Source: Klebsormidium nitens
Taxonomy: Eukaryota > Plantae > Klebsormidiophyceae
Assembly (NCBI GenBank): GCA_000708835.1
Contig: DF238763.1
Location: 1 to 64,000 of the forward strand
Reading direction: 5' to 3'
DNA length: 64,000 nt
Shown here: positions 7,598 to 64,000 of the stretch, one piece after another
How the letters are laid out: each line of letters starts with the position of its first letter
Position numbering within the stretch: position 1 is the first letter of the stretch
Notes under the pieces: generated by a model
The model's input: the letters and a program-made list of their open reading frames with translations, nothing else
What the model was told of the DNA's origin: nothing
Databases searched by the model: none
Program-made: the position numbers and the translations under genes

Positions 7598-7990
7598 CTA
7601 TCGGGGCGAAGAACCACTCACTGAAAGCACTTGCTTCTTTTTCCACAGATTTATTGAAGCCATCAAAAAGGGCAGAGAAAGGCGCAACTCCAAGAAGATT
7701 TGACTGAAGGGGATGGGGAGAAAGCAGCCAAAGTGCTTGTGTTGTAATTATGAACAGGTTGAGTCATAGATCCAATGTTCTTTTTTGAATGGGAAAAGAG
7801 GGGGGTTCTTTGGCTCTCACCACATATTAAGGCTTGAAGCAATTTTTTGGTGGCGTCACAAACAATTTTGTTTTTATTCCACAAAAAAAAAGAAAGGAAT
7901 AGAATAAAAGACACGGGACTTTTGCGCCTTAACGCCAAGCAGGCATGGCATTTTTCGCTTAGTACTGAAATGAGAAAGAATTGAACAATC

Positions 7991-10375
7991 ATGCTTATCG
8001 AAACTGGTCATTATTTTTTAGCTTTTAGCGCTTTTCTTCTTTTTACCCAATCTTCTTTTTTTTTAGCATTGACTGCTGTAACATTGCTTTTTTCTTTGTT
8101 TTGCTTATTCGTAAGCTACGCTTGCTCGGACTTTTCAGTAATAAATGTTTTTATAAATTCAAATCATCAACTCCCTGTTTTTTATAAAATTTCAGGAGCT
8201 TGGTCAAATCACGAAGGCAGTATGCTTTTATGGGCTTGGATCTTAAGCTTCTTTTGCATATTGTTCTTAATAAGATCTCGCCTCAGCGCTCAAGCAATAC
8301 ACATCCGACCACAATTAGTATTCAGCTGTATCTTATTCTACTTTTGTATCTTCTTATTTGCGACATCCAACCCTTACCTTAGGCTTTTATTGATTTCACC
8401 AGAAGCTATGGCAGAGCTCAATCCAGTTCTGCAAGATCCTATCTTAGCTATACACCCCCCTCTTATTTATGCAGGATATGTTGCAAGCGCGATTGCATTT
8501 GCGGTATGCTTATCCATTTGTATAAAATCATATAAAACGGGAAAAGATTTTCGCAGCCTTTATAAGCGGAAAGATCGTATTCAAGCAGCGCTCAAAGCAG
8601 TTTCTTCATTTTCCGTGCGCTTGATTCACTCCAAAAAAGGCCAAAACGTTTGGAACAAAGAGCCACTAATGGGGCTGTTGCCCCCTGCTTCGCTGAAAAA
8701 AAAAGTTTTTTTTTTCTCTACGCTCCAATCCCCTTCGGGGAGTAGCTCTTCGCTGAAAAAAAAGTTTTTTTTTTTATCTTCGCTCCAATCCCCTTCGGGG
8801 AGTGGCTCTTCGCTCCACACTTTTAAAAAGTGTGGCTCTTCGCTCCAATCTCCTTCGGAGAGAGGCTCTTCGCTCCCCGAAGGGAAATGGAGCGAAGAGA
8901 AAAAACTTTTTTTTGAACCAAATGAAACAAAAAAAAGAGTCTTTTTTTTGAGTGCAGCGAGGCAACCTGTCAAAGCCATCCCTTTGAGTGAGGCAAAGAA
9001 TCAAGATACAATAGTGTCGGGTTCAGACTTATCAGTCATTAGGGCTTATCAAGATTGGGGGTGGAAAGAGATCCGTATTTGGACTCTGATTTGCTGGTGC
9101 TTCTTAACTGTAGGAATTCTTTTAGGGAGTTGGTGGGCATACCATGAGCTTGGTTGGGGAGGCTGGTGGTTTTGGGATCCTGTTGAGAACGCGTCTTTTA
9201 TGCCATGGGTCTTATCAACTGGCTTAGCCCATTCTATCTTGTATGCCCATTTAAGGCTTTGGACAGTGTTTTTTAGTTTTGCTATATTTCTATTGAGTCT
9301 GCTAGGCACGTTCTTTGTTCGCTCGGGTTTTTTAGCTTCTGTTCATAGCTTTGCAAGTGATTCCAGCCGTGGTCTATTCTTTCTTATCTTTTTAACTGGC
9401 CTTGTGATCCTCTGTACTCTCGTTTTCTACCAATTTTGCTCTTATTCGAAGAGGTTTCTAGAGATAGAGAATAAGAAAAAAATTGCCCAAGCAGCACAGC
9501 AAAAAAAAGGAGTGAAAAAAGCTGAGTCTTTCACTAGGATTCAAAGCTTGTTTGCGCTTATTGTTTGCACTGTAGTTTTGTGTGGAACTGCGGCTCCTGT
9601 TCTTTTTTCACTCATTTTTGGACGCGACGTATCTGCGGGAGCACCTTTCTTTAATGGCACCATACTCCCAATATCAGGCGCTCTTTTGATCCTCTGTATC
9701 TTCGCTCAACTTGACAATCGATCTTTCTTCAATATCCTTTTTTGTCTATTCATCTGTGTTGTGAACACAGTTCTAGCCTATTTCATAGGAGGCCTGCCGA
9801 TTACTGAATCTTTGTTCTTTTCCATTGCTTTTTTGTTATTCTATACGCTTTTATGGAAAAGCCGTACAAGCATGCAGCTTGCTCATGGTGGGTTGTGTGC
9901 TTTTATTGCAGGCATAATCTTTTCAAATCCTTACAAGTCACAAGCAACCCAAATGCTTCAGATAGGTGATCTTTTCTGTATTGATAAGAACACCCTTTTG
10001 ATTTTAAGAGGGATTGATCAGCTCTACGGGCCCACCTTTCAATCAATTTGCGCCAATCTATTTGTACAACCCAATCAATTGGGCTCAAAAACAAATCATT
10101 TCGTTGAAAACAATAGCGGTTTTCCTATATTTCCAGAAAAGCGATTTTATTATTCGCAGACAGATAGTAGCACAACAAAGGTTGCAGTCCAAACAAATGG
10201 CTTTTCTGATGTATATGCGCTCATAGGGAGCGGCAATATTGAAACAGGATGGTATACTACAGTGATCAAATTACCATTCATTGCTTGCATTTGGATTGGT
10301 TTTTTCATATCATCTTTAGGGGGGGGGTTCAGCCTTTCAAAACAATTGAAGATGCCTCATCTTTTTTGGATGTAA
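7991..10375 (+). CDS. ccmF: Cytochrome c maturation protein CcmF (unsplit N+C), with an in-frame repeat-derived insertion
   Basis: WSNHEGSMLLW, LAIHPPLIYAGY, tryptophan-rich WGGWWFWDPVENASFMPW and SVHSFA motifs; C-terminal CcmFC-like LPFIACIWIG. Confidence 0.95.
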   Translation: MLIETGHYFLAFSAFLLFTQSSFFLALTAVTLLFSLFCLFVSYACSDFSVINVFINSNHQLPVFYKISGAWSNHEGSMLLWAWILSFFCILFLIRSRLSAQAIHIRPQLVFSCILFYFCIFLFATSNPYLRLLLISPEAMAELNPVLQDPILAIHPPLIYAGYVASAIAFAVCLSICIKSYKTGKDFRSLYKRKDRIQAALKAVSSFSVRLIHSKKGQNVWNKEPLMGLLPPASLKKKVFFFSTLQSPSGSSSSLKKKFFFLSSLQSPSGSGSSLHTFKKCGSSLQSPSERGSSLPEGKWSEEKKLFFEPNETKKRVFFLSAARQPVKAIPLSEAKNQDTIVSGSDLSVIRAYQDWGWKEIRIWTLICWCFLTVGILLGSWWAYHELGWGGWWFWDPVENASFMPWVLSTGLAHSILYAHLRLWTVFFSFAIFLLSLLGTFFVRSGFLASVHSFASDSSRGLFFLIFLTGLVILCTLVFYQFCSYSKRFLEIENKKKIAQAAQQKKGVKKAESFTRIQSLFALIVCTVVLCGTAAPVLFSLIFGRDVSAGAPFFNGTILPISGALLILCIFAQLDNRSFFNILFCLFICVVNTVLAYFIGGLPITESLFFSIAFLLFYTLLWKSRTSMQLAHGGLCAFIAGIIFSNPYKSQATQMLQIGDLFCIDKNTLLILRGIDQLYGPTFQSICANLFVQPNQLGSKTNHFVENNSGFPIFPEKRFYYSQTDSSTTKVAVQTNGFSDVYALIGSGNIETGWYTTVIKLPFIACIWIGFFISSLGGGFSLSKQLKMPHLFWM

Positions 10376-10958
10376 CTTTACTTGATCTTTCAAAGAGTTG
10401 AATAAATCAAAGAACTTGTTGAATAGAGAATAAGCCCCAAGGTAAAAAATCAAAGCATAAAGTTCTAACCCAGAGATTGAATACAATGATTATTCTAAAC
10501 GCCTATGCTATACCTTAAACCCAATAACTATAGCCCAGAAATGCGCCCCAATAGAGAAGAGCGAGACGAGAGTCATCCAGCAGAAAAAGCAGTTTTATGC
10601 GTCAACACAAAGAAAAACAGCAAAATTTTTAGCTATTCTTTTTTTTGCTTTTTTTACAGAAAAAAAGCTGTAGGCTCAGGCTTAGTGGGATTGTCGATCC
10701 CCATTTTCTATTTGAAAAAGAAACGCGAGCAAGCACGCTGTACTCGGCTCTCTTTTTTTATTGAGGAGGTTGAAGTACCAGGCTGCGCTGAGCAAAAATC
10801 AATTTTTCAGCCTAGCGGGGTTCGAAAAGCTTTTTTTTTTGCATGCGAGAGACAAAGATTCAAGGCTTTCCTTTCTTTCCCACTCACTTCTTCTTTTTTA
10901 TTATCACTCCCAGTTACTTCCATCTTTTTTGGCCGCGAGAGAAAAGCCTGCTACTAAG

Positions 10959-29888: not shown

Positions 29889-30557
29889 ATGAAAAAATAT
29901 TGAAAAGGAGAAATCAATCAAACTCCAATCTTAGATATCCATCAAGATTCTCTTCCTTTATCGCTCCAGCAACGAATACTCGATCCTGTTATTGATTATG
30001 CCCCCATTGCTTTATCCGTGGTTGCTGGAGCTGTGGGGGTAGACCTACTGCTGTGGTATTTTAGACGTAGGTCAGACCTTGGCAAACCAAGCTTAGACGA
30101 TAGTAAACCTAAGAGTTTTCTCATTGTTTCCGCGGAGAGTAAAAACGAGACGATTGGGAGCCAAACGCCTGCTGATGGAAAAGAAAGCCTAGCCCAAACA
30201 GAGATAACACAACACGTTGTTCATGCTTTTGGGAGATATTCGAAAGGGCACGCAAAACGCATATTTCAGTATAGAAATGATCCGGATCCGGCAACCAAGC
30301 GCGAAAGCGAGGAACAGTATCATTTTCTTGTAGGTGGGAACCGTCTAATTGGGAATATGCGTGAGGGGGGATTTTCTTTAAACTTGTTGATAAAACAATG
30401 TCAAAAAACTCTAAATCCCAGCTCCTCTATTACTGGTTTGTCTGATTTGGATCTTCAAAAGAGCAATATTGTAAACGTCCACTATCAAAAAATGTTTCGT
30501 CAACAGAGCTATTTGCCAGAGGAGCTATTGTTTGAGCGCTTTCATTGGGCTTTTTGA
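29889..30557 (+). CDS. Hypothetical single-TM protein; ATG 29889 is followed in frame by TGA 29901, then the frame is open 29904-30557
   Basis: Open frame of 217 codons with hydrophobic IALSVVAGAVGVDLLLWYF then RRR; start uncertain (GTG 30018 or upstream). Confidence 0.4.
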
Positions 30558-44138: not shown

Positions 44139-44439
44139 AGACAATAGTGATTGTTGATTTGAGTGAAAAAAAAGAATGAATAGACAGATAGGCTATTAAT
44201 AAAAAAAAGAAAATCATTCTGTAAAAAGAAAAATGGATTTATAATAAAAAAAGTGTTTTTTCTCTTTGATCCGCTCGCTGCATAAAGTTGCTCTACGCTT
44301 TTTAATGCAGTCAATTTTGTATAAGAGATTGCTGGAAAGCCGTGATCCAACCAAAATTCTCACTAAGTAAAAGAGAGTTGAATAAGCATCGGATTTTAGT
44401 TTTATTCATTTTTTTTTCAACATATTTGTTATCAAATCC

Positions 44440-45430
44440 ATGAATTACAACACTATCGAATTGTGTGCAGGATCTGGGGGTATGAGTAGTGGTTTTATAA
44501 ATGCTGGATTTGTCCCTTTGTTGCTGAACGACAAAGACAAGACATGTTGTAACACCCTCCAAAAGAATTGTCCTAATATTCAAGTGATATGCGAGGATAT
44601 GTCAAAGATCGATTTATCTCAATATAAAAACCGTACCGATGTACTCGTGGCAGGTCTACCTTGCCAGAGTTTTTCAACTGCTGGAAAGAGAGGAGGGCTG
44701 GAGAGTTCTCCAGGGAATCTCGTATATGAGTTTATTCGGCTCGTGAAGGAGGTAAAGCCTCGTGTTTTTTTACTAGAAAATGTGAAAGGATTGCTCTCGA
44801 TTCAGAAGGGGCAAATATTTCAAATGCTTATTGAACTCCTAAGAGTCAACGACAAATACAATGTTTACCACAAGTTGTTGACTTCATTATGGAGTTCCTC
44901 AGAAGCGCGAAAGAATTTTTTTCGTCGGGGTTCGCAATGATATTCCCGAGCTCTATGAATTCCCGTTCCCACTGAATAGAACCACTCCCTTAAGAGATGT
45001 TTTACTGGGCTGTCCACCAAGCCCAGGCTATGAATACCCACAATGGAAGCGTGAGATTATGGATCAAATCCCAGAAGGTGGCTGTTGGATACACCTACCA
45101 CAAGAGATTCAGAAGTCTTACCTAGGTCGTTCTTACGGCGCAGGTGGGGGGCAGCGCGGGGTCGCCCGTAGATTGAGTATGGATGAGCCTTGTCTCACAC
45201 TGACGACAAGCCCGTGTCAAAAACGAACAGAGAGGTGTCATCCTCTTGAGACTAGACCTCTGAATGTTAGAGAATATGCACGAATTCAGACTTATCCCGA
45301 TGATTCCTTCTTTTCTGGATCTCTAGCAAGCCAGTATCGGCAGATAGGAAACAGTGTGCCTGTTAGCCTGGCCTATTATGTTGCATTATCCATTAAGAGA
45401 CTACTCAATGCTAATGCATGTGTGTCTTGA
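44440..45430 (+). pseudogene. dcm: DNA (cytosine-5)-methyltransferase of a Type II R-M system, with one frameshift near 44880-44888
   Basis: Motif I ELCAGSGG, IV LPCQSFS, VI ENVKGL; the shifted frame is open 44882-45430 and holds VIII YGVPQKRERIFFVG, the TRD, IX RPLNVREYARIQTYPD and X QYRQIGNSVP. Confidence 0.92.
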
Positions 45431-45907
45431 GATTCTCTTTTATCACTTGAATAATGCGTTTATAATTGGAATCGGGTGCAAAAATCAATCGTAAAAGAAG
45501 CGTGCCCGACATATATCTTATGCTTCTACTATTTTATCTTCTGCTTTCCCGTTCTGGGCATTTATCACACCATAGATCACTGTATAGTCTGTATGTTGAA
45601 TTGCAAAGGCCTTTCATTTTTGATAATTATGTTTTCTAGCCGATGAATTATCGGTGTTCAATGAGTTTTTTAGCTCTATAACAATCTTTCGCTCGTGATT
45701 GATCAAATCTAGGCCAGACGGATCGCCTTGTTTTCGATTTTGCCATCCTTCTGCACAACCTATAACTCCTTGCCATATCTCCCCAATGCGCATCTGAAGG
45801 TTTTTGACCTTATGACAAATCTGGTATTCACTCTCTGGAATGACTTCGTCCAGCAGTATATCTTTCGTTGAACGTGTTCTTATACGGCGACTCCAAATGC
45901 CTTGCAT
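45411..45907 (-). pseudogene. Type II restriction endonuclease remnant, Eco47II/Sau96I-like PD-(D/E)xK
   Basis: LQMRIGEIWQ...GW...GLDLIN...IVIELKNSLNTDNSS; in-frame TGA at 45616-45614, read-through KAFAIQHTDYTVIYGVIN, frameshift near 45522, then IRYMSGTLLLRLIF to TAG 45411; convergent 20-nt overlap with the MTase. Confidence 0.75.
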
Positions 45908-47083
45908 CAATTTTGAAATCTTTTCTTTAATCTTTTTAAAAAAATCTTCGCTTCTGTCAAACTGACGAGATCTGTTCTGGACTTTTTTTTTTCTATAGTT
46001 CGCTTTTGTTTACGCTTCTTTTTTTCCCATATCCTTAATAAAAAGATTTCATGGGAGCTTTGGTGAGGAGTCTGCTGCTCCCTTCTTCGTTCTTTGAGTC
46101 TTTGAGCTCTTAAAATTGTCGGGCTATTTCCTTTATAATTCATCTTTTGAATTCTTTTTTTATTGAAAAAACATCGATTTTCTGAATTTTTGTATTTCTT
46201 TCTGTAATGAGCCATAAACACATGTCTTGAATAGAGTACAAAAGACTGTACTTTTTTGCGAGAGTGACTCTGTGATATATTCTTATTCGAAAGAAAAAGT
46301 GAATGGATCTAATTCAAAAAGATTGCAGGAACAACGTCACTGCCCCAAAAGAGGAGTAGAACAATGTCACTGATCGAGTTGTTAACCCTGCTGGGCTGAG
46401 AAAAAAAGTCTTATTGAAACGTTAATAAGGTATGGTAGACGAACAATATTTTGAAGGAAAAGCACTCTTTCTCATTCGTACAAGCCTAGATTTCGCTTTT
46501 GAGTTTAAAACAATTCCAATTCATTCAAAGATTCTAGAATCTACACGTGTTGTGAAATCAATTCTATCTTGCTTGAGAAAAAAAACAATCGTTTATTGAT
46601 TCTTTTTTTGAATAAAAAGGATTTGAAAAACAAAGATTTTTGTAAAAGAGTAAAGCAAGTGCCCTCCATCTCATTTGACTCTCGGTTGAGAAGAAGTGAT
46701 TTGGAGTATTGTTTTCCACCGAAAAAAAATCAATTGATTTTTTATTGGATATATTTATTCAAAAAACCTTTGATTAAAAAGCATTCTTTTTATTCAAAGA
46801 ACGAGTAAAATGACTTATGGGGCTAGCGTTCTCTGCTCCGCTCCAATTCCCTTCGGGGAGAGGCTCTTCGCTCCCCCTCTTAAAGAAGATTGGAATGAAA
46901 TCAGGAGAATAAGAGAAGTTTGAGAAGTGAACGAAGCAGCGCACTTGCATCTTATTGCGATGAAAAAAAGAAAGATTGCTTCCTTTCAAATTGAATATGC
47001 TTTTTTCTCTTTAAAAATGATTGATTCATAAAGAAAAGCCATGCCGTTTGATTTCAAATCGAGCTAGCTCTCACTCAGTCAAT

Positions 47084-54040: not shown

Positions 54041-54399
54041 CAATAAAAAATTCAAAATCGTATAAGATCTTTCTTTCAAAACAATCGAATGAAATAAAAA
54101 AAGAGATTTTTTTGAATGAAATCACTCTCAAAAAGGAGTGCAATGAAATCACTGATGGGGCTATTGCGCCCTACTTCGCTCCAATCTCCTTCGGAGAGAG
54201 GCTCTTCGCTCCACTGCCAGAGAGTGGCTCTTCGCTCCCTCTCGGCAGTGCAATGAAATGGGGGTCTAACGCCCCACTAAAAGTCATAAAAAAGATTCAA
54301 ACTGGGTTTGGATGGTTTTCTTTCAATCTATCCTTTTTTGGGATTGAAAGCAACCCCTCGTTCGGCTTCTTCAATCATTTCTTTGAAAGAAAAAGAGAT

Positions 54400-54567
54400 C
54401 CAAACTTTTAATTTTAAAAAGTGTGGCTCTTCGCTCCAAACTTTTAATTTTAAAAAGTGTGGCTCTTCGCTCCAAACTTTTAATTTTAAAAAGTGTGGCT
54501 CTTCGCTCCAAACTTTTAAAAAGTGTGGCTCTTCGCTCCAAACTTTTAAAAAGTGTGGCTCTTCGCT
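54400..54567. repeat. Tandem array, 3 x 36 nt plus 2 x 30 nt (CCAAACTTTT[AATTTT]AAAAAGTGTGGCTCTTCGCT)
   Basis: Direct reading. Confidence 0.93.
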
Positions 54568-54666
54568 CCAAATAGAAGATTGCCCATTCCCGGCATCCCC
54601 GCCGCATATAAGCAACCAATCAAAGGTCATCGTTTTCAAAAATTGACAATCAATAAAAAAATTCAA

Positions 54667-54891
54667 ATGTTAGAAGGAGCAAAATTAATCGGAGCAGGCT
54701 GTGCAACTATTGCATTAGCCGGAGCAGCAGTTGGCATTGGAAATGTGTTTAGTTCTCTAATCACTTCAGTTGCTAGAAATCCTTCATTGGCGAAGCAGTT
54801 GTTTGGGTATGCAATCTTAGGATTCGCATTAACCGAAGCTATTGCTCTTTTCGCTCTAATGATGGCTTTCCTAATCTTATTCGTATTCTAA
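54667..54891 (+). CDS. atp9: ATP synthase subunit c
   Basis: [11 protein letters not shown]...ARNP...LTEAIALF. Confidence 0.99.
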
Positions 54892-56167
54892 ACCGGGTAC
54901 CTTTAAGGTATTGAAGACAAGAAGGAAAGCTTCTTCTTGAAGCACTCCTCGCAATACAAAGAATTCATTTCTAATTTGCAAAAGCTCTCTCAACGCTTTT
55001 TTAAACGGGGTTGCACAACGTCTAACTCCCTGCAGTTGTATTTCTGTTGTGCAACCCTCCCTTCATAGGGTTGATTGTATCGAAAGACCCACCCTATTCC
55101 CATTCAATTTTTTAACAGCGCACAAGAAAAAGCCTAATCTTTCAAAAAAGGGTAAGGCGAATTACTTGAGTTGTCCTTCTCTTCTCTATCAGCCACGGCA
55201 TGCCTTTACAAGAGCGTTCATTCTTGAATACGCTTGCCTATTAGAAAAACTTTTTTGTTTAGACTGACTAAGCTCTAATGGATTCTCCTAAAATTGCTTT
55301 TTCTTTGCCCGCTCTTTCTTGTTTGCATTGAATTTTTTTTAAACTTTGAGAATTGAGAGAAAACAAGATTTTGTTCACCTATCTGGTGTTCCGTTTTCTC
55401 TTTTTATATTAAAGCGTATTACTGATGCATTTAGATCCAATACCTTTTGAAGCCTTATTAATAAATTACTGGCAGTCGCTAAACATAAGGCTTTAATAAG
55501 AATTGAGGAGCGAAGATAAAAAAAAAAACTTTTTTTTCAGCGAAGAGCCTCTCTCCGGAGGATTTTCTGTTATTCCATACTAAAAGAGGGTTAACCTTTT
55601 TTCATTTGACTCTATTGTATACCAATCAAAATGTTATAGAGGGAAGTGAATGAAAAGAAAAATGGCACATAAATCACGAAAACAAAGTTTCAACAAAAGA
55701 AAGCAAGGTTTCAACAAATGAAGGGAAGGAGCCGCATGCAAGGTTTTGTGCGAGTGGCAGAGAATGAAAGTTCAACAAAGGTAGATTCAGCCAAAGAATA
55801 TTTCAAAGCTTTAAACGCTCGTATTTATACTGCAACAATTCCCGAGCTTCTGAAGTGGCTGTTTCAACAAAAAAATCGTTCAATAAGATGGTTTCTAAGC
55901 ACATTTATTTTGCTATCTTAAGAAATGCATTGTTTTGAACGAGTAAGGGTGAGTGGAAGGTTCCAAACCCCTACGGGGATAGGCTCTTAGTGGGGCTAAA
56001 GCCCCCCATTTCATTTGACTTCCTGCCGCGAGTGACTTCGTTAGTGGAGCTAGCGCCGCCAATTTCATTCAAAAAAATTTCTTTTTTGATTTCATTCCAC
56101 TCCCGGAGAGGGGGTGATTTCATTCAAAAAAATCTCTTTTTTTATTTCATTCCACTTTCTTTTTGGA

Positions 56168-56257
56168 GGAGCGAAGAGCCTCTCTCCGAAGGAGATTGGA
56201 GCGAAGAGCCTCTCTCCGAAGGAGATTGGAGCGAAGAGCCTCTCTCCGAAGGAGATT
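56168..56257. repeat. Tandem array, 3 x 30-nt unit GGAGCGAAGAGCCTCTCTCCGAAGGAGATT
   Basis: Direct reading. Confidence 0.93.
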
Positions 56258-56971
56258 GGAGCGAAGATAAAAAAAACACTTTTTTTTCAGCGAAGAGCCA
56301 CTGCCCTCCAGGGAGTGGAGCGGAGCAGGGGGCAATAGCCCCATCAGCGATTCTATTCCTTTTTTAAAGGCTACTTGCAAACTTTTTTCAACCCGCCTTC
56401 TTATGAAAGATGAAAGCAAGCCAACGCATCAATCATTTCTACGACGGCTGATCCTTCGATGAAGGCAGACTCTGTTTCCATGTTTAGGATGAGTCTTTCT
56501 TAAAAAAAGCAATGCTCACTCGGTCAATTTTTCAATCATTCTAGCCTTTCAATCGGAAAGAGTTTTATAAAAAAAAATTCTTTCTCTTTATTGATTTGAA
56601 AATTTTTGTAGAAGTCTGCTTTCTGAGCCAATAAAAACTTGCCGCTACGATTAGGGTCGAAGAAACTATTGGTGAACCAATCCTTTCGAGAATGATAAAA
56701 AATGATCAAGTTTGCCCTTTCCGCTCTTTGTTTTTTGAATAATGAGAGAAAGAGAATCAGTAACCCCCGCGGTTTTTTTTGAACCGCCCAGGGTTTAAGC
56801 GAATTAGGGCGCTGTTTCTATCTAAACCACAGGTTTTTACATAACGCTATAGTTGACGGGTACTCAATCTAGTGGTTTGCTAAAAGCTGTGCTTTACGTT
56901 CTTGTAGCTTATTGACTAAAGCTGGGCATTTGAAGAGCTATTAAAAACTACATCCTTTAGCTACTAACTAT

Positions 56972-57012
56972 AGCAATCATGCCTTTTAAGGCTTCTTAAA
57001 GGCATGATTGCT
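56972..57012. terminator. 18-bp inverted repeat AGCAATCATGCCTTT(T)AAG-gctt-CTTAAAGGCATGATTGCT just downstream of the recombinase gene
   Basis: Near-perfect stem with one bulged T; function as terminator or processing stem is inferred. Confidence 0.4.
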
Positions 57013-57074
57013 TTGTTTAATTGATATAGAATGTATCTTGTTGAAACTTTTAAATAACTTGGCGCTCTTAGCTC

Positions 57075-57794
57075 TTATTCGGTAGGTTTGACAGACTTTT
57101 GATTGTCTTTATTGTTTGTGTTTAAAGCCGTTTCTACAATTTGGCTAATGGCTTTTGGATCTACAACGAAACGGTCATAACGTTCAGTAGTTCTTATGTC
57201 TTTATGACCTACAATTGTTTTGACGTTTTGCAATGGGACAACCCTTAAAAGTCTTGGAATGGAATTGATCCGGAATGAATGACTCGTTAAAATGAGATTA
57301 AACTTTGAAATTGCAGGTTGCATAAAGCGATTAATGGAGCGAATCCACTGATCTTTGCTTATTTGTTTTGTTGAATTCTCGGCGCTAGCGAGTGGTTTAT
57401 TATATTGCTGCCTAAAGACTGTTTGAATATCAAGGTCGAGCTTTTCTAGCATTTCTTTTGCGCTTTTTGTGAGAACAACAACCCTATACTTGCCGGTTTT
57501 TGATTGGGAAACCTGAAATGATCCGTGTCGCAAACCAGATTCAATATCTTTGAGTGTAAGCGACGCTGCATCGCTAGCACGTAAGCCTAAAAATCTTAAA
57601 AGAGTAATAGCTATTCTAGCTCTTGCCCAAACATATCTATTAATGTACAACGCTCTTTTCAAAGACATTAAGAAGTCATAAACAGACTCTGAAGCAGGAT
57701 CCCGCAATGGCATTTCTTTCCGAACAGTTCGCTTTGGTTTTGTTTCCAATCGTTGCTGTATTTGTTCTAAACGATTGATTCTTTTATCATTCAC
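57075..57794 (-). CDS. Tyrosine recombinase/integrase, apparently intact (GTG start)
   Basis: GLRASD (Arg), KTGK (Lys), HSFR (His-x-x-Arg), VGHKDIRTTERY (His, catalytic Tyr). Confidence 0.92.
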   Translation of the reverse strand: MNDKRINRLEQIQQRLETKPKRTVRKEMPLRDPASESVYDFLMSLKRALYINRYVWARARIAITLLRFLGLRASDAASLTLKDIESGLRHGSFQVSQSKTGKYRVVVLTKSAKEMLEKLDLDIQTVFRQQYNKPLASAENSTKQISKDQWIRSINRFMQPAISKFNLILTSHSFRINSIPRLLRVVPLQNVKTIVGHKDIRTTERYDRFVVDPKAISQIVETALNTNNKDNQKSVKPTE

Positions 57795-58116
57795 TCCCTT
57801 TTGTTTTATAGCTCTCGGAGCTGCTTGCTATAGCTGAATAACGCTTTGTTTTTCTTAAACGATTCTTAGGAGACCTATTTGTTGGTTCCCACGCTTCAGT
57901 AGCTTCTTTCTTCAATTTATGGATTTGAGTTGAAAGAATGTGGGGAACTTCACCTTTCTTTCTATTCCAATGAGCAACAACTTTAGGTGCTTTATGCTTT
58001 TGTTGTGTTAGTGCTAAGTGCAATTGAGTAGGTGGGACATTTTGAAGTGTAGTTCCTTTCAAATCCTCATTAAAGGAATGTATCTTTTCTTTTAAGAAAT
58101 TATCTGCTTGCCTCAT
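57787..58116 (-). CDS. orf109; resembles the tail of an rve integrase and is probably the detached 5' part of the recombinase gene
   Basis: NFLKEKIHSFNEDLKGTTLQNVPPTQLHLAL aligns by eye with SFVQQAIEKYNSKPHRHLEGLSPNQMEEAL of the opposite-strand gene. Confidence 0.45.
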   Translation of the reverse strand: MRQADNFLKEKIHSFNEDLKGTTLQNVPPTQLHLALTQQKHKAPKVVAHWNRKKGEVPHILSTQIHKLKKEATEAWEPTNRSPKNRLRKTKRYSAIASSSESYKTKGSE

Positions 58117-58176
58117 AGATTGAAATGTTAGCGTCCACTTGCCCGCCTTTCTAATTTGCTATTTGAATGTTTTTAA

Positions 58177-59696
58177 ATGACTATTCAAATGAATGAAAAC
58201 AAAAACGAAGTTAGGAACTTAATAATGCAAAAGTATATCTCGATTCGTACAAATTATGCTATTTGTATGGATATAACGAATTTAGGCGTCTATGGTCAAT
58301 TGGTTGTAGCAGTAGATATGGCAGCAAGACATATTGTAGGCCATTGGTATCATAATGAGGCGATTACTACTGAGCATGTTTGTCAGACTCTAACACAACT
58401 AACCAAAAAAAGAAGTTTTTTGCCTAAGATAGAGATTATACAAACGAACCGGGGATCTATTTTCACTAACCCAGAGTATTATGATTGTATAGATCAATAC
58501 AAAATACTAAAGAGTAAAGGATCTTCTAAGGGACATCAAAATCAAGTAGTTGAAAGACTTTTTAGAACCCTTCAAAGCATACTGCGCGTGCTCATTTGTC
58601 CTGGTTGGAAACAAAAAGACCCAGATCCACTCAAGCAACTCCAGTTCTCTTCCCAAGAGATGGCTTCCTTTGTTCAGCAAGCGATTGAAAAATATAACTC
58701 AAAGCCCCATAGGCACCTAGAGGGGCTTTCACCCAATCAAATGGAAGAAGCTCTCTTTTTAAAGCATGGTAACGAACACCCCCAAGAGCCTACCCAATTG
58801 ATTGTAAAAAATGAGAACTCTTTGCTTGCTCAAGAAGCCATCGAATATAGAAGGCAGGTTGCTCAGCAATTGAAAGGTGACTGGTTACGCTTTTTTATAG
58901 AATGGAAAAAGGATCAAGAGAAACTTCAAAAACAAGTTATAAACCAAATTGAACAAAGGAAAGAGCAAGTTATTGCCCGCCTTACCCAAACCGCCAAAGA
59001 AGCTGAAGCACGTGCCGAAGAGATTCAAAGCCAATACAAGGTCTCGTAAACATCTCGAGACACAGCAAAAAATTCACTACTTAAGCGAACAAGCTCAAGC
59101 TGCGCAACGAGAAAAACAAGAGAAAGAGCAAAGAAAGCTTAAAAAGAAGCAAGCTAAAAAGCAAGAAATAAGGCAAACCGTCTCCGCTGAGGAGTTTGAG
59201 TTTATTATAACTCTTGTTAAGTGTAGGGGAAATGCTAGACCTCGAAGGCGCTTAGCACTCGTACTCCTTTTTCTTACCGGATTAAGAGTTTCTAATTGAC
59301 TTCTCTTTAAAGTAGCCCATGGCAGTGAGTTATTCGAAAAGGGCAACACCCACATACCCCTTATTAAAGGCGGCGAAACTCAATATCCACTTCAATTAAG
59401 CGCTAAAGGGAGCAAAATGCTGCTTCAGTTTAAAGACGATTTTCTTGAGCTTTCTAAGCATAAAAGTGGTCATATGCTCCTTTTCACTACAGCAAAAGAC
59501 TTTAGTAAACCTATTGCTAGGGAAAACTTTGATAAAGAGCTCAATAAGATACTAGCCATAGCTTCTGCTCAACTTGAAAAGCATCTTAGAACTCATAGTT
59601 TTAGAGCGACTATTATTGCTAAGTTATTAAAGTATACGGAAAGGCATGTCGTGGCTTCTATGAGACACTAGTCCCAGTACACGCGTTTATGTGTAA
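58177..59696 (+). pseudogene. Fused DDE (rve) integrase - coiled coil - tyrosine recombinase gene, decayed
   Basis: rve core MDIT / TNRGS (D to N) / VVERLF and YN..PH..L..SP; frameshift near 59040; TGLRVSN then TGA 59297; HSFR; TAG 59669 and a frameshift before STRVY (catalytic Tyr at 59688). Confidence 0.85.
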
Positions 59697-59882
59697 GGCG
59701 CTAGTCTTCCCAAAACCCTCCCGAATAACGTTTTCAAACGGGTAAATACCCCTCAATAAATTATCCAATTGTGATACGTTTTCGCGGGTTTCGTTGAATC
59801 TCGTCGATTTTTAGGGGTAGTGGGTGCATATTTTCAATAAAGCCCGAGAAGAAACGAAACCTTAATAATTTTATAAAAAAAA

Positions 59883-61110
59883 ATGAGCAGACCTTTATAT
59901 AACACATACAATGAGAATAGCTTTGAGCGCCTAGGATCATCGAATTCGCTAATTGATACATTCTCAGAACTTGAAGTGGGTCGGGAGGTGTACTTTCGTA
60001 CCTACGTAAAGTTTCGTCGTCCTTTGACGCTAGTCCATAGTCAAATGTTCACCCCAGAGTTGGGCGCGCTGTCGTTGTTGGAGTTAAGCAGCGATAGCGA
60101 CTGCTTATTTACTTCGTTAGTAAACGCGGGGTTGGGGAGTCAATTGATTAATCATTTTGCCGAATGTGAAAGCTCCGGGATGGATTCTACCGATTTAGAG
60201 ACTGGCGATGTGCTAATGGAAAGAATTTTTCGGAATGTTAATCAAGGAAAGGGAGGTCATTTGTCTGAGAAAGGTCTTTGTTCAGAGTCAAACACCCTTT
60301 ACAAGTTGAAAAGCGGTATAAGAGATTTGCATCGTGTTTTGAAATTCGATAAAAAGTTTTTGGCTAACATTCTTGAGGGTCTTAAGTCTGGGTTGTGTAA
60401 GCTTGCTCGGGTGGATCTATGTATAGACCTAAGCGAGGACATTATGCCTTACGTTTCCCATGGCATAAAAACGGGTCAATATAAATGGGCGGCACCCCTT
60501 TGCTTTCGGTTGGTTGGCGGGTGAACGGGTAGAGGGCGCTGCGGGGCGCAATAGTAAACTTTTTAAAGATTTTGAGAATAAGCAGTTGATTCTAGATTCG
60601 GTATATTTTGGCAATTCTAGAAAAAGCGATGAAGTTGCTGTGTTTTATAACAGGCGAGAGGAGCGTAAAGACAGAGCTGAGTCGAGCTGGGCGCCAAGAA
60701 GTAGGGTAGAAGTTCGCATATATCCTCGCACAGAAGAAACTGAGAAGGTCGCAATCTCAATTTTGGAAAGTTATTTGGATGAGACAAATGGTTGGCGCGC
60801 ACGAATCCCGCACTTTGGAGAAGTGCTTTGCCGATGCGTAATGTTTACTACAAAGAGGCGCCCCGCATCCCCGCTAGACTTGAAAGATGTGGCTCCCTGG
60901 TGGCAGTTGCTTTTACGTACGCTGATGGTTGGTTCAAAAGACTTTGAGTTTCCAAATGAAAAAGGCTTGTTAGAGTCCAATACTACGCAGCGGGGGGTTA
61001 CGGGCTTTCTGCCTACCATAGAAATGCCTAAAAAGGGCAGGGGGCGCCTTAAAAGTTCAAAAGACAAAAACACACGTAAGTCAGGCTCAGGCCGCAAAAA
61101 AAATTTCTAG
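59883..61110 (+). pseudogene. Rep_trans-like rolling-circle replication initiator/relaxase with one frameshift near 60486
   Basis: LARVDLCID (RxDLAxD-like), DSVYFGNSRKS (TxYxGSRxS-like), FYNR (catalytic Tyr), W...RVEVR. Confidence 0.6.
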
Positions 61111-61500
61111 ATAGACACTCGATTCAAGCATATAACTGATTCTTCTTTTGAAAGTGGGCTTTATAAAAGATTCTATAAAAAAAGGAGGAAAGCGATAGTC
61201 TTTTTTGTAAGAGGGATAGTCTTTCTTGAGCGCCTAACAAAATGATTTGAAGAAAATTTTGATGAAAACCCTTGCAAAAAGGATAGTCTATATGTTTAAA
61301 ACGGGTAGTCTATCTGATTTTAGTCGCGTAAACCATTTCATCCTTTTTCTTGTTTAATAGTAAAACCTTAATAGTTTTCAGTAGCTAAAATTGGATGAAT
61401 TTTTTAGGCGGGATTGTCTTTTAGAAGATGCCCTTCATTTACGGGTGTAAAAAAGCAAAGTTGATTGTAATTTCCCTAACAAGATTCGTTTATTTGGAGA

Positions 61501-62013
61501 TTAGTAGATTAGTGGATAAAGGTGGTGTAGCTTCTTTCCTTGTATCCCTTGAATAGGGGAGAGGGTGCAGGGAGGGGGCGCTCCTCTTCCCCGCGCGGGT
61601 TGGTTGATTGTGTAGTTCCTCGTTAACTTTCCTAGAAGCTTCAATAAACTCGTTTCTTTCTTCTTGGTTGTATGGGGGGTTGCTTGCGCATCGGGGGTGA
61701 GGGGGTGCAAGAGAGATGAGGGGTGACCCCCTCCTACCCCCCACCCTAGTGAGTGGTGAATTATTAAAAAAGAGAGCAAGGGTTTGATTGTGGTGCCTTG
61801 AACCGCGAGGGGTGTTTCGCTTGTCGCCCGGGGGGCTTGCTCTTCTATATAGTTTCTGGCTGCAAGATCTGGGGCAGGGTATAGACGAACTACCTTGTTT
61901 CCCATAATAATAGCCTGGTCAGGTTTGAACTGCTCAAACGAGGGGTTGTTTCTCGTTGCTGGGTCTATCGTGTAAACTCCGCAATCCAAATCACACTTTT
62001 CATTTGAAGCCAA
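61501..62013 (-). CDS. Hypothetical protein orf170 (TTG start, GC-richer island DNA)
   Basis: 513-nt ORF with no recognised motif. Confidence 0.3.
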   Translation of the reverse strand: MASNEKCDLDCGVYTIDPATRNNPSFEQFKPDQAIIMGNKVVRLYPAPDLAARNYIEEQAPRATSETPLAVQGTTIKPLLSFLIIHHSLGWGVGGGHPSSLLHPLTPDAQATPHTTKKKETSLLKLLGKLTRNYTINQPARGRGAPPPCTLSPIQGIQGKKLHHLYPLIY

Positions 62014-62384
62014 GAGGCTAAAAAAACAACATTCTCCCTTTCAAGTTTGCACGTTGTCGTAAACAATTTTTCAATTCCTGAGCCTACAGCCTAATTGTCA
62101 AAATGCTTTTGAACAAAAGAATAAAGAATCCGTTCGATTTTTATGAATACTATGTTCCGTGTTTTTCAAGGTATTAAAAAAAGAACATGCTTTCTATGGT
62201 TTTATAAAAGATTAGAACTATGGCTATGCGAAAAAAGAACAAGATTCTCCTATCAATTGAAAACAACGGCAGGCTATGCGTGTAATAAAGATAGCACTCT
62301 TCTAATTCTTTTATTCAATAATCTAATTGCATTTTATTCAATTCAATTAGAGTCTTCTCTATCATAGATTTTGAAAATACAGAC

Positions 62385-62457
62385 TAGGCCTAGTAGGGCT
62401 CGAACCTACACATTCACCGTTATGAGCGGTGTGCTCTACCAGTTAAACTATAGGCCT
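62385..62457 (-). tRNA. trnI: tRNA-Ile(CAU), lysidine type
   Basis: Anticodon arm CACCG-CTCATAA-CGGTG, characteristic of Ile2; fMet and eMet are already accounted for. Confidence 0.88.
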
Positions 62458-62649
62458 ATGCTGAATAAAATTGCAAGGAGTGAATTGCAACGTTATGGGC
62501 GCTCTCCCAACCATCGCAGCAAAAAAAGACTCTTTTTTTAGCAAAAGGGCATGCGTCTTATTGGAGGGGCGGTAACCACTCAATGAAAGAAAGAGGTGCA
62601 ACCTAAGAGTCCCCCCCAACGAGGAGCTATGCTCACCAATTTGTTTGAG

Positions 62650-62769
62650 GTGGAACGAAGTCGCTCTCCCCCAAGGGGAGTGGAACGAAGTCGCTCTCCC
62701 CCAAGGGGAGTGGAACGAAGTCGCTCTCCCCCAAGGGGAGTGGAACGAAGTCGCTCTCCCCCAAGGGGA
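62650..62769. repeat. Tandem array, 4 x 30-nt unit GTGGAACGAAGTCGCTCTCCCCCAAGGGGA
   Basis: Direct reading. Confidence 0.95.
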
Positions 62770-62994
62770 GTGGAACGAAGTAAAAAAAGAGATTTTTTTG
62801 AACAAAGTGGGGCACGCCAATGCCGCTAATGAAATCAATCCACTCCCCTTCGGGGAGTGGCTCTTCGCTCCCGATAGGGAGTGGAAGGCAGAGGAGGTGA
62901 AAGGAATCTGGTGGTTAAAGGGGGGGCGAGGGTTTTGAGCTTGTTTCCCCCAAAATTGGCTCATCCCCCCACTTATAGCCTCTCTGATTCTTCA

Positions 62995-64000
62995 TTATAT
63001 ACGGCTGTGTTCAATACAATGCATGACCGAATCGTGCATAGTGTCAAGAAATATTTGAGGATAAATTCCCATCCAAATTACAACAATTACAAAAGGTAAG
63101 AACATAAAAAATTCTCTTCGGTTACAATCAGAGTAGGTGGCAAGAAAGTGAGGCTTTAAGTTTCCAAAAGCTACACGATTGTAAAGCCATAAGGAATAAG
63201 CTGCTCCTAGCACCATTCCTGTTGCAGCAAGAGTCGCAACAAATGTATTGCTTTGAAAAGCACCTACAAGAATCAAAAATTCGCCTACAAAACTACTTGT
63301 TCCAGGCAGACTCATATTCGCCAACGTAAAGAACAAGAATATTGCGCAAAAGACTGGCATTGTATTTGCTAATCCTCCGTAATAACGAACAAGTCTTGTG
63401 TGATGCCGGTCATAGAGCACACCTACACATAAAAAAAGCGCAGACGATACAAATCCATGGCTTAACATTAACATTAAGCTTCCTTCAATTCCTTGCGGAT
63501 TGAGGCTAAACAAACCAATGGTTACAAAATTCATATGAGCCACAGATGAGTACGCAATAATCTTTTTTAAATCAACCTGGCGCAGTGTAGTACAAGAGGT
63601 GTATACAATTGCAATCACAGAGAGTGTGAAGATCAGTGGCGTAAAATAAAGCGTAGCATCGGGAAACATTGGAATAGAGAAACGTAAAAAACCGTATGTG
63701 CCCAATTTGAGTAGGATTCCAGCTAAGATCACAGAGCCTGCGGTTGGTGCTTCAACATGGGCTTCTGGCAACCATATATGAACTGGAACCATTGGTACTT
63801 TTACCGCAAACGAGGCAAAGAAAGCAAGCCATAGCAAAATCTGACGGCGTTCGCTAAATTCAGTCGTATACAAGATTTGTATATCCGTAGTACCTGTTTG
63901 AAAGAAAAGAAAAAGAATGCCTAGCAGCATAAAAACAGATCCAAACAATGTATATAAAAAAAATTGATAAGCCGCCCGTATCTTTCTTTCTCGTGAGCCC
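62995..64000 (-). CDS. nad4: NADH dehydrogenase subunit 4 (5' part lies beyond the window end)
   Basis: VKVPMVPVHIWLPEAHVEAPTAGS, DLKKIIAYSSVAHM, SLPGTSSFVGE. Confidence 0.98.
   Translation of the reverse strand, partial: GSRERKIRAAYQFFLYTLFGSVFMLLGILFLFFQTGTTDIQILYTTEFSERRQILLWLAFFASFAVKVPMVPVHIWLPEAHVEAPTAGSVILAGILLKLGTYGFLRFSIPMFPDATLYFTPLIFTLSVIAIVYTSCTTLRQVDLKKIIAYSSVAHMNFVTIGLFSLNPQGIEGSLMLMLSHGFVSSALFLCVGVLYDRHHTRLVRYYGGLANTMPVFCAIFLFFTLANMSLPGTSSFVGEFLILVGAFQSNTFVATLAATGMVLGAAYSLWLYNRVAFGNLKPHFLATYSDCNRREFFMFLPFVIVVIWMGIYPQIFLDTMHDSVMHCIEHSRI

Follow-up and report, generated by a model that had tools for sequence, protein, structure and literature searches.

A probable fossil of small organellar plasmids, with broken rolling-circle initiator and recombinase genes, beside a mitochondrial tRNA gene of a green alga

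How did a cluster of replication and recombinase genes come to lie beside a tRNA gene in the mtDNA of Klebsormidium nitens, and can it still leave? The window, i.e. the whole 64,000-nucleotide stretch of DNA analysed here, has the identity of green-algal mtDNA, with the end of atp9 at 54891 and the start of nad4 at 62995, and the cluster forms an island between these two genes. An earlier note had taken the island for one foreign CTX/ICE/IME-like unit, possibly still excisable via an intact recombinase. The foreign mobile origin holds, as does the presence of a Rep_trans rolling-circle initiator, but the single excisable unit is not supported: the genes are damaged, sequencing depth is flat and the position is shared with another species. 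Most probably, several organellar minicircle plasmids of ~2 kb, each with a single gene, inserted beside trnI and survive there as a fossil co-integrate that has since been inherited vertically. The island itself is of a known kind, namely decaying plasmid DNA in algal mtDNA.

Genes and borders of the island

The island carries one Rep_trans gene and two types of fusion gene in which a DDE (rve) domain is joined to a tyrosine recombinase (YR) domain, all of them as broken copies (Table 1).

Table 1. Features of the island and of its flanks (window coordinates).
Feature	Position	Strand	Remark
12-bp direct repeat TCTTCTCTATCA, left copy	55180-55191	+	Abuts element motif at 55191-55207
Element motif AAAGGCATGYCGTGGCT, copy A	55191-55207	-	~60 nt downstream of decayed gene end
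Decayed 3' end of rve-YR fusion gene	55267-55462	-	Corresponds to P0002 residues 489-552
Host dispersed repeats	55507-56325		In older, left part of island
Hairpin / inverted repeat	56972-57012		17-bp arms (16/17), 7-bp spacer, AAAGGCATG twice
YR1, tyrosine-recombinase catalytic domain	57075-57827	-	C-terminal half of type-1 rve-YR fusion
Upstream remnant of YR1's fusion	57823-58176	-	End of rve domain and linker; other frame; stop codon
rve(DDE)-YR fusion type 2, pseudogene	58177-59638	+	Broken member of otherwise intact fusion family
Element motif, copy B	59640-59656	+	At truncation point of type-2 gene
Rep_trans-family rolling-circle initiator, pseudogene	59883-61110	+	Frameshifted; divergent; AT-hook-like C-terminal tail
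Two short direct repeats, GGATAGTCT core	61205-61222 and 61272-61289	+	Downstream of rep
orf170	61501-62013	-	Probably no gene
12-bp direct repeat, right copy	62353-62364	+	20 nt past tRNA 3' end
CAU-anticodon tRNA	62384-62458	-	ARAGORN; 3' end faces island; host gene bounding island

YR1, which the earlier note called intact, is so in its active site but not as a gene. It matches Phage_integrase (PF00589) over 57075-57794 with an E-value of 8e-15 and keeps all six catalytic residues (R-K-H-R-H-Y), a counterpoint to reading the island as a fossil. It is 83% identical to P0051, 68% to the rve-YR protein P0053 and 44% to a Roya integrase, and it groups with the Roya proteins (support 1.0), which are the ones among the orphan organelle integrases that were compared with YR1. 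The upstream remnant aligns by tblastn with P0051, P0053 and P0055 (58-69%), and the N-terminal rve part of the type-1 fusion is absent from the island; by these alignments YR1 represents the 3' half of another rve-YR fusion gene that is likewise broken.

Catalytic-domain-only tyrosine recombinases such as FimB are active, and this precedent, together with a frame of 212-250 codons that stays open amid broken neighbouring genes, could speak for domestication: the island would be a fossil, but YR1 a stand-alone recombinase that resolves or rearranges mtDNA. According to PMC3814193, the mtDNAs of Roya and Chaetosphaeridium retain stand-alone integrases of its clade, in a gene context common to both. 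Against this, the catalytic Arg is lost in the YR1 relatives P0051 and P0055, and P0052, P0053 and P0055 end early; past HxxR, the window copy carries a 7-residue deletion and two substitutions, the latter within an otherwise conserved helix; and in organism B the gene differs at many positions and has two stretches that do not align. We thus regard domestication as quite improbable. Note that no contig is listed over YR1 in X5, a presumed RNA run, which is not evidence of silence.

The type-2 copy, whose decay the earlier note had recognised, matches rve over 58177-59049 (E 6.5e-8) and carries (i) an Asn in place of the second Asp of the DDE triad; (ii) a 5-nt deletion near 59040, a metagenome contig having 5 extra letters across 59019-59166 relative to the window; (iii) a TGA at 59297; and (iv) a 3' truncation that removes the catalytic His and Tyr. 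It is also a mosaic, its last ~65 residues being nearer to a different subtype. The part missing from this copy is what the decayed remnant further left corresponds to (tblastn identities of 43% and 57%, E 6e-7; interrupted by stops and by a frameshift), and with this third rve-YR remnant the island extends left to about 55,180. Sequencing error at the gene breaks was rejected: contigs from the source run match both breaks with zero differences, and a run from another study matches the window across the break at 59040.

The claim of a frameshifted Rep_trans-like gene is upheld in both its parts. The window copy has a 5-nt deletion near 60486, the conserved N-terminal Asp is replaced by Gly and the Lys of YxK by Arg; programmed +1 frameshifting was rejected because relatives reveal the deletion. 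PF02486 is matched at E<=0.01 by 24 of the 49 Rep family members (best 7.7e-11); the match is weak for the window halves alone (E 0.15, below cut-off), and the closest seven relatives give E 1e-4 to 0.02, all below cut-off. The motifs described for Rep_trans proteins in the relevant part of PMC4797284, i.e. R140-x-D142-x-A-x-D146, T176-x-Y178-x-G180, Y191-x-K193, R212-x-E214 and the metal ligand D46, are largely present: among 49 rows, the first motif has R in 30 and its two D in 36 and 44; T/S, Y and G occur in 49, 48 and 49; Y and K in 46 and 47; R and E in 45 and 47. An N-terminal D, presumably equivalent to D46, is found in 38 of 42 ungapped rows, and the equivalent of R189 is not conserved. 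For the Rep model (pLDDT 38), the top six Foldseek rows are 4CWE, 4CIJ and 4CWC (E 0.016-0.049), and structural comparison (VIA) gives Z 5.1 and rmsd 5.2 over 156 aligned positions; a profile built from the 49 rows matches a single PDB entry, 4CIJ (E 0.079). PDB searches with a single sequence or nine rows returned chance matches and an AT-hook peptide only; when A1 was aligned by hhalign with one Rep_trans-like ORF from a bacterium, the similarity was not significant (probability 0.1); an Atlas search with a Rep half gave zero usable matches, and scans of metagenome and viral contigs with the Rep family gave zero matches. Altogether, the Pfam and motif evidence and, more tentatively, the PDB-profile and fold comparisons support a divergent Rep_trans protein. 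The family comprises 102 clusters at 50% identity.

As to the borders, three host-repeat motifs are absent from 56318 to ~62650, confirming the repeat-free stretch noted earlier, and a single repeated 15-mer occurs in the whole of 57013-62520. GC content is 37-45% inside the island and alike in the host, so composition gives no signal. On the right, the island is indeed bounded by the 3' end of a CAU tRNA gene, probably trnI rather than trnM. On the left, the proposed hairpin boundary exists as a hairpin (-17.1 kcal/mol with DNA parameters, segment 56960-57025 folded) but not as a boundary, the third rve-YR remnant lying beyond it. This hairpin, which a contig of organism B skips by joining across 56760-57096, is a candidate recombinase site or replication origin; it is not terminator-like. 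AAAGGCATG is present four times within 7.5 kb, where shuffled sequences average 0.12 copies (at least three copies in 0 of 300 shuffles), the motif having been picked post hoc and two of the four copies being the hairpin arms; as a general feature of loci L001-L008 it was not borne out. Downstream of rep, the short direct repeats already noted are present and possibly represent origin iterons. By contrast, orf170, earlier listed as an ORFan, is probably not a gene: it has no match in Pfam, PHROG or Atlas, and the region carries frameshifting indels in organism B.

The earlier note had found no att duplication. A search for a copy of the tRNA end indeed gave none, its best match being TCTTCTCTATCA, which lies outside the tRNA; this 12-bp sequence, present in two copies only within the window, is a weak candidate for an attachment core, an equally long match being found in 58 of 1000 shuffles. 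The two AAAGGCATGYCGTGGCT copies agree at 16 of 17 positions, and as one or more pairs of this quality arose in 6 of 30 shuffles, they carry little weight on their own.

Depth and inheritance of the island

In source sample X1, depth is 79-92 over the island and 84-89 in atp9/nad4; in X4, it is 875-1058 over the island and 1024 on the atp9 side. Contigs of organism B cover 57899-59485 (123 differences in 1580) and 59529-60131 (31 differences in 602), and another (61427-62467) reaches into the tRNA gene; contigs of metagenome X15 span both 59638 and the junction between island and tRNA. One organism B contig begins just 30 letters from the break in rep. The island lies in place, with identical internal junctions, in a second species and in a metagenome and, since the second species carries it at the same position, we conclude that it has been inherited vertically. 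Of the two points on which the earlier note had staked its reading, the Rep_trans similarity holds, whereas the region is shared vertically by relatives.

Neither an excised circle, an end-to-end joint nor an empty site is found among the listed joints (contigs of 7 of 24 runs), a search blind to low-level variants; because contigs drop rare forms, low-level excision may still occur. A 'goes back' joint in X4 (62871 to 56045) and several opposite-strand joints were rejected as excision since all lie in host repeats with sides of ~30 letters. In the presumed RNA runs X5 and X9, depth is low and coverage extends equally to coding and non-coding parts; these runs are uninformative on expression.

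These data bear on the proposal that the island is a single integrative rolling-circle element (IME/CTX-like), targeted to the trnI 3' end and still excisable via YR1. Such an element would account for a Rep_trans gene and a YR gene next to a tRNA 3' end, for a 12-bp repeat at both ends and for the preserved YR1 catalytic residues. However, rep is frameshifted and has lost its conserved Asp, YR1 is without its N-terminal half, depth is flat with zero excision joints listed, and another species has the island in the same position; moreover, the 12-bp repeat is outside the tRNA and matched by chance as stated above, host repeats sit within the span that it bounds, and intact Rep and fusion genes are mostly on separate short contigs. 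We therefore give this proposal very little credence. All three mobile genes are damaged, and the island has the appearance of a fossil, not of an integrative element that still works.

Relatives of the island genes on contigs of about 2 kb

Intact Rep and fusion genes mostly occur singly. The 13 intact rve-YR fusions are 528-621 aa long, and 10 of the 12 with known contig size sit on contigs of 1.9-2.7 kb; all nine members of one cluster are on contigs of 1979-2269 bp, all five of another on contigs of 2139-2250 bp, and nine Rep relatives on contigs of 1.6-3.1 kb. Contigs of 4121 and 32,880 bp seem to carry both fusion types (paired by size alone), therefore multi-gene units may exist. Note that a whole 1.65-kb gene demands a contig longer than the gene, and that repeat-bounded assembly pieces also yield fixed sizes.

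Several observations point to circles. In X15, a 1999-nt contig ends mid-gene at 59529 and pieces of the same depth (12.9) match the upstream gene parts, so that it appears to behave as a permuted circle would, integrated-type contigs having depths of 2.6-3.4; no circle-closing 'goes back' joint is listed for it. Complementary gene halves are found on same-size contigs (P0040 and P0043, 1979 bp; P0173 and P0171, 2271 bp), and in L005 units of ~2.1 kb follow one another in the order A-B-A' and share a non-coding core. Same-size contigs may also be different contigs, and a nonsense change could split a gene. Free copies are in some cases 4-14x deeper than the integrated copy; for the same fusion subtype, depth is 1492-1727 against 76-131 in X10 and 20 against about 5 in X8. 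A plastid or another organism in the run could likewise be a source of high depth. We infer that the ~2-kb contigs are circular; intact members of the source family likely persist as free circles in related algae. The free forms would be mitochondrial, judging from integrated copies in mtDNA-type contigs: five of eight loci (L002-L003 and L006-L008) are rve-YR remnants in other algal-type mtDNA contigs, in two arrangements, and lie near a different, HUH-type Rep.

The fusions are conserved at both active sites. The R, HxxR, H and Y motifs are present in 28 of 28 full-length sequences checked, and 27 of 28 have the D-D-E triad, whose E stands at +35 relative to the second D in each of three sequences examined. 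The top Foldseek matches of the DDE domain are ASV/RSV/HIV integrase cores (E 6e-6, prob 1.0). Canonical Int/Xer/Cre proteins carry a core-binding domain ahead of the catalytic domain; the P0002 model has none, and a single continuous helix (234-325) joins its DDE and YR domains. The fusion would thus conserve two unrelated recombination chemistries in a single chain.

Could the island instead be horizontally acquired bacterial or phage debris, the ~2-kb contigs being assembly fragments or belonging to algae-associated bacteria? The DDE half resembles IS3-type transposases (27-30% identity) and the YR half resembles phage integrases (27-29%), one Rep relative (P0163, 2.6-kb contig) is labelled Acinetobacter sp. 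MAG, and the case for circularity is indirect. Yet a full-length fusion occurs in none of 242 matching plasmid records, none of 10 matching phage records and none of the GTDB and IMG/VR scans, P0053 having five partial GTDB matches (29-38%, rve region only) and P0015 zero matches to plasmids and phages; the named relative (the Roya integrase) and those placed by context (the mtDNA-type loci above) are organellar; and at the DNA level the free subtype shares 93% identity with a stretch of the integrated gene. Bacterial or phage debris is therefore an unlikely source.

For the minicircle co-integrate, we propose the following scheme. One circle type would encode the Rep_trans initiator, which would nick an origin, drive rolling-circle replication and probably also serve Rep-less circles in trans. 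Other types would encode a protein in which a coiled coil of ~90 residues lies between a DDE core of the IS3/retroviral type and a XerC-like catalytic domain; this YR domain would resolve circle multimers and join circles at short inverted-repeat sites. Occasional insertion into mtDNA could occur by the YR, by the DDE domain or by homologous recombination. It is conceivable, though we advance it tentatively, that green-algal mitochondria harbour an undescribed multipartite system of ~2-kb one-gene minicircles, in which a Rep_trans circle replicates the set and partner circles encode a bifunctional recombinase whose DDE and tyrosine active sites both work. Such circles would recombine mutually and with mtDNA, would change their Rep partner (Rep_trans in this island, HUH in other loci) and would be the source of the orphan integrase genes scattered among green-plant organelle genomes. 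If real, the family would explain in a testable way where the 'phage integrase' genes come from that have been described, patchily distributed, in green-plant organelles since 2002, and would place Rep_trans initiators in or near a eukaryotic organelle, for which our literature searches gave no precedent. A small natural replicon with a site-specific recombinase might also become a tool for green-lineage mitochondria, where few exist.

Comparison with known systems

The closest precedent in mtDNA is pUme, a 5.36-kb circular plasmid of Ulva mitochondria that carries a gene for a phage-type RNA polymerase and enters mtDNA through homologous recombination (PMC9389341, in part). As in Ulva, the family here would combine a free high-depth circle with tandem or decayed copies in green-algal mtDNA intergenic regions; unlike pUme, the units here are ~2 kb, carry Rep_trans or DDE-YR genes and are circular by inference, and the main text of the pUme paper has zero mentions of integrase, recombinase or rolling. 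Diatom serC plasmids resemble the presumed minicircles in being small, circular, organelle-associated and endowed with a site-specific recombinase, and several have merged in one organelle insertion that also bears xerC-like genes; they differ in having a serine recombinase, a size of 3.5-4.5 kb, a plastid location and multiple ORFs (PMC8070900, in part), the island family being ~2 kb and mostly single-gene. HthCRESSV1, an ssDNA replicon of oomycete mitochondria, also pairs an episomal rolling-circle replicon with endogenised mtDNA copies, the episomal state being presumed for our family; its Rep is HUH (Gemini_AL1) rather than Rep_trans, and the portion of PMC13499601 describing it mentions no recombinase.

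Orphan organelle integrases are known from Roya (orf235), Chaetosphaeridium (orf202), Prototheca (orf304) and Klebsormidium (orf374), and Spirogyra plastid orf659, with PF00589 and PF00665, already lists the rve and YR pair. The sections of PMC3814193 and PMC4877394 concerned present them as phage-derived genes that stand alone, connected neither with a Rep nor with free circles; supplementary maps and ORF tables may already annotate the region or further fusions. Finally, the best structural match of the island Rep family is to Rep_trans initiators. Like pT181-family RepD, RepSTK1, CTX RstA and the Tn916/ICEBs1 relaxases, as covered in part of PMC4797284, it has RxDxxxD, T/SxYxG, YxK, RxE and the N-terminal Asp; unlike them, it has a hydrophobic residue instead of R189, mostly Cys instead of A144 and an AT-hook-like tail, and is apparently organelle-associated.

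Layout and setting of the island

The stretch between atp9 and a CAU tRNA gene, probably trnI, next to nad4 (the island) is real and foreign. The repeat-free stretch, the recombinase domains and the hairpin at 56972–57012 described in the earlier note are borne out by repeat analysis of the window and by domain matches, and the tRNA on the right side is oriented as first described. In the hairpin, two 17-bp arms enclose a 7-bp spacer; a tyrosine recombinase (YR) site has this layout, so the hairpin is a candidate YR site. The island, first called from 56972, extends at least as far left as the decayed end of a gene fusing a DDE integrase core (rve) to a YR. A 12-bp direct repeat flanks the extended span. 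By itself it is of marginal significance, as 58 of 1000 shuffles did equally well; its left copy starts where a 17-nt motif common to both type-2 copies stops, a suggestive abutment but one spotted after the fact.

Coordinates of features in the window and in metagenome loci (L)
Feature	Position	Detail	Context
ccmF, single ORF	7985–10375	796 codons	matches Cytochrom_C_asm and CcmF_C
atp9	end at 54891	flank of island	window
12-bp direct repeat	55180–55191 and 62353–62364		flanks 7.2-kb span
rve-YR gene end, decayed	55267–55462	opposite strand to type-2 gene	part missing from 58177 gene
YR1	57075–57827 (-)		
YR1 upstream part	57823–58176	other frame, with stop	adjoins start of type-2 gene
type-2 pseudogene	58177–59638 (+)		
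Rep	59883–61110 (+)		
orf170	61501–62013 (-)		
nad4	from 62995	flank of island	window
geminivirus-like HUH Rep with helicase region	L006:7990–9216, L007:8000–9226, L008:7802–9028	uninterrupted 409-codon frame	rve-YR remnants nearby on algal-type mtDNA contigs
geminivirus-like HUH Rep	L002:8688–9668	frame split in L002–L003; helicase region and nearby rve-YR remnants here too	algal-type mtDNA contigs

The extended island also holds unique DNA (55600–56000 and 56330–56970), present with substitutions in a second species (organism B), and a 67-codon ORF (55718–55921) with no family match. Family scans found no relatives of orf170, which carries frameshifting indels in organism B. The GC content of the island is the same as that of the host.

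The window is green-algal mtDNA, as its 21 tRNA genes, atp9, nad4 and ccmF show. It includes trnR(ucg) and a C5 methyltransferase gene near three tRNA genes, both features being on record for Klebsormidium in the accessible part of PMC3814193; judged by this gene content, the source is likely a klebsormidialean streptophyte. The methyltransferase (PF00145, E 8e-43 and 1e-23) is frameshifted, and a restriction endonuclease gene of the Eco47II type (PF09553, E 1e-8), likewise broken, points towards it. Together, at window 44386–46308, they are what is left of a complete restriction-modification pair in mtDNA, of which the same portion of that paper mentions the methyltransferase alone. ORFs of 217 codons (29904–30557) and 152 codons (10499–10957) have no Pfam match above chance. 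The host repeat family, built of tandem 30- and 36-bp units that contain small palindromes, is scattered over intergenic DNA (54112–54580, 56160–56270 and 62640–62780).

Recombinase fusions and the Rep gene

The decayed fusion noted earlier proved to be a member of a real family: rve and Phage_integrase are both present in 13 proteins of 528–621 aa, to which the type-2 gene belongs. A structural model of one fusion predicts a DDE core, resembling retroviral integrase cores, a continuous helix (234–325) and a YR catalytic domain. YR motifs are kept in all 28 full-length fusions checked and D-D-E in 27; no full-length fusion turned up in searches of plasmid, phage, GTDB and IMG/VR records. The type-2 window copy has its second Asp changed to Asn, a 5-nt deletion and a TGA, and lacks the catalytic His and Tyr. 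Most of it is 84–92% identical to the fusion relative P0002, but over the final ~65 residues another subtype is the better match (70–77% versus 62%), which points to recombination between subtypes. As for the recombinase described as intact, YR1 does retain all six catalytic residues. It is nevertheless the C-terminal half of a broken fusion, with 68% identity to P0053, itself an rve-YR fusion, and its upstream part out of frame. It falls in a separate clade with Roya mitochondrial integrases (support 1.0).

Frames 59883–60524 and 60469–61110 form a single Rep gene, whose nine relatives (342–487 aa, 46–84% match) show that 5 nt are missing near 60486. A profile search for the family gave 102 clusters at 50% identity. 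In an alignment of 49 sequences (three close relatives and longer profile matches, shorter fragments omitted), 24 match Rep_trans at E<=0.01 (best 7.7e-11), and the best-conserved columns are the residues named for RepD, a pT181-family initiator, in the available part of PMC4797284. The proposed frameshifted, Rep_trans-like gene is thereby upheld. The profile's only PDB match was 4CIJ (E 0.079), and a poor model (pLDDT 38) ranked three Rep_trans structures first (Z 5.1). An N-terminal Asp, found in 38 of 42 ungapped rows, is probably the third metal ligand; the window copy has Gly there, as do 2 of 18 close relatives. These two have 89% identity to the window copy, an open frame and contigs of 5.1–5.3 kb, so they probably represent the island in a less decayed state.

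A probable source family on ~2-kb contigs

Intact family genes are mostly single on ~2-kb contigs, with sizes tight within clusters; in two clusters the complementary halves of a gene sit on contigs of equal size. In metagenome X15, a 1999-nt contig stops inside its gene and same-depth pieces match the gene's upstream parts, as would be expected of a linearised circle. Its depth is 12.9, versus about 3 for integrated-type contigs; the same subtype reached 1492–1727 versus 76–131 in run X10 and 20 versus about 5 in X8, and it was not seen in source-sample contigs. Several points count against reading the ~2-kb contigs as organellar circles, a reading drawn from their sizes, depths and gene matches: their depth may come from the plastid or other organisms, one of the Rep relatives is catalogued as Acinetobacter, and some contigs apparently carry both fusion types. 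In locus L005 (1–5024), ~2.1-kb units follow one another in the tandem order A-B-A'; every unit has an intact rve-YR gene, and they share a non-coding ~130-bp core that bears a hairpin. The run is either a true concatemer or the product of assembling related circles together. Of the eight metagenome loci, five are contigs of mtDNA type; they fall into two arrangements and carry rve-YR remnants close to an HUH Rep (Gemini_AL1, E 1.7e-6).

Age of the insertion and comparison with known plasmids

The suggestion that the island is still excisable is not supported: in the source sample its contig depth equals that of the flanks, its two ends are not connected by any contig joint other than those in host repeats, and YR1 is only half a gene. 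The island is very probably inactive. Organism B carries it at about 92–95% identity over the head-to-head junction and the 59638 truncation into the tRNA; X15 has the same truncation and tRNA join, yet keeps the 5 letters missing near 59040. By these comparisons, the insertion predates these lineages and is decaying independently in each. Runs X4 and X1 also contain low-depth variant contigs (about 20 versus 1000 in X4) matching island and nad4 positions (window 54600–63900), possibly nuclear copies of mtDNA.

Altogether, we consider it reasonably likely that small organellar plasmids joined into a co-integrate, of which the island is the fossil. What matters beyond it is the proposed source family, whose recombinase combines two chemistries. 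A Spirogyra plastid ORF is already listed with both rve and YR domains (PMC4877394), and stand-alone integrases are reported in several streptophyte mtDNAs (PMC3814193, PMC4877394), with no plasmid link stated in the accessible parts of these papers. The literature accessible, mostly without subscription papers or supplements, yielded no description of such circles (algal mitochondrial, Rep_trans or rolling-circle, with integrase; also Klebsormidium). According to the available portions of PMC9389341 and PMC8070900, respectively, pUme of Ulva and the serC plasmids of diatoms are free circles with decaying organelle insertions; the island family would work in the same way but belongs to neither.
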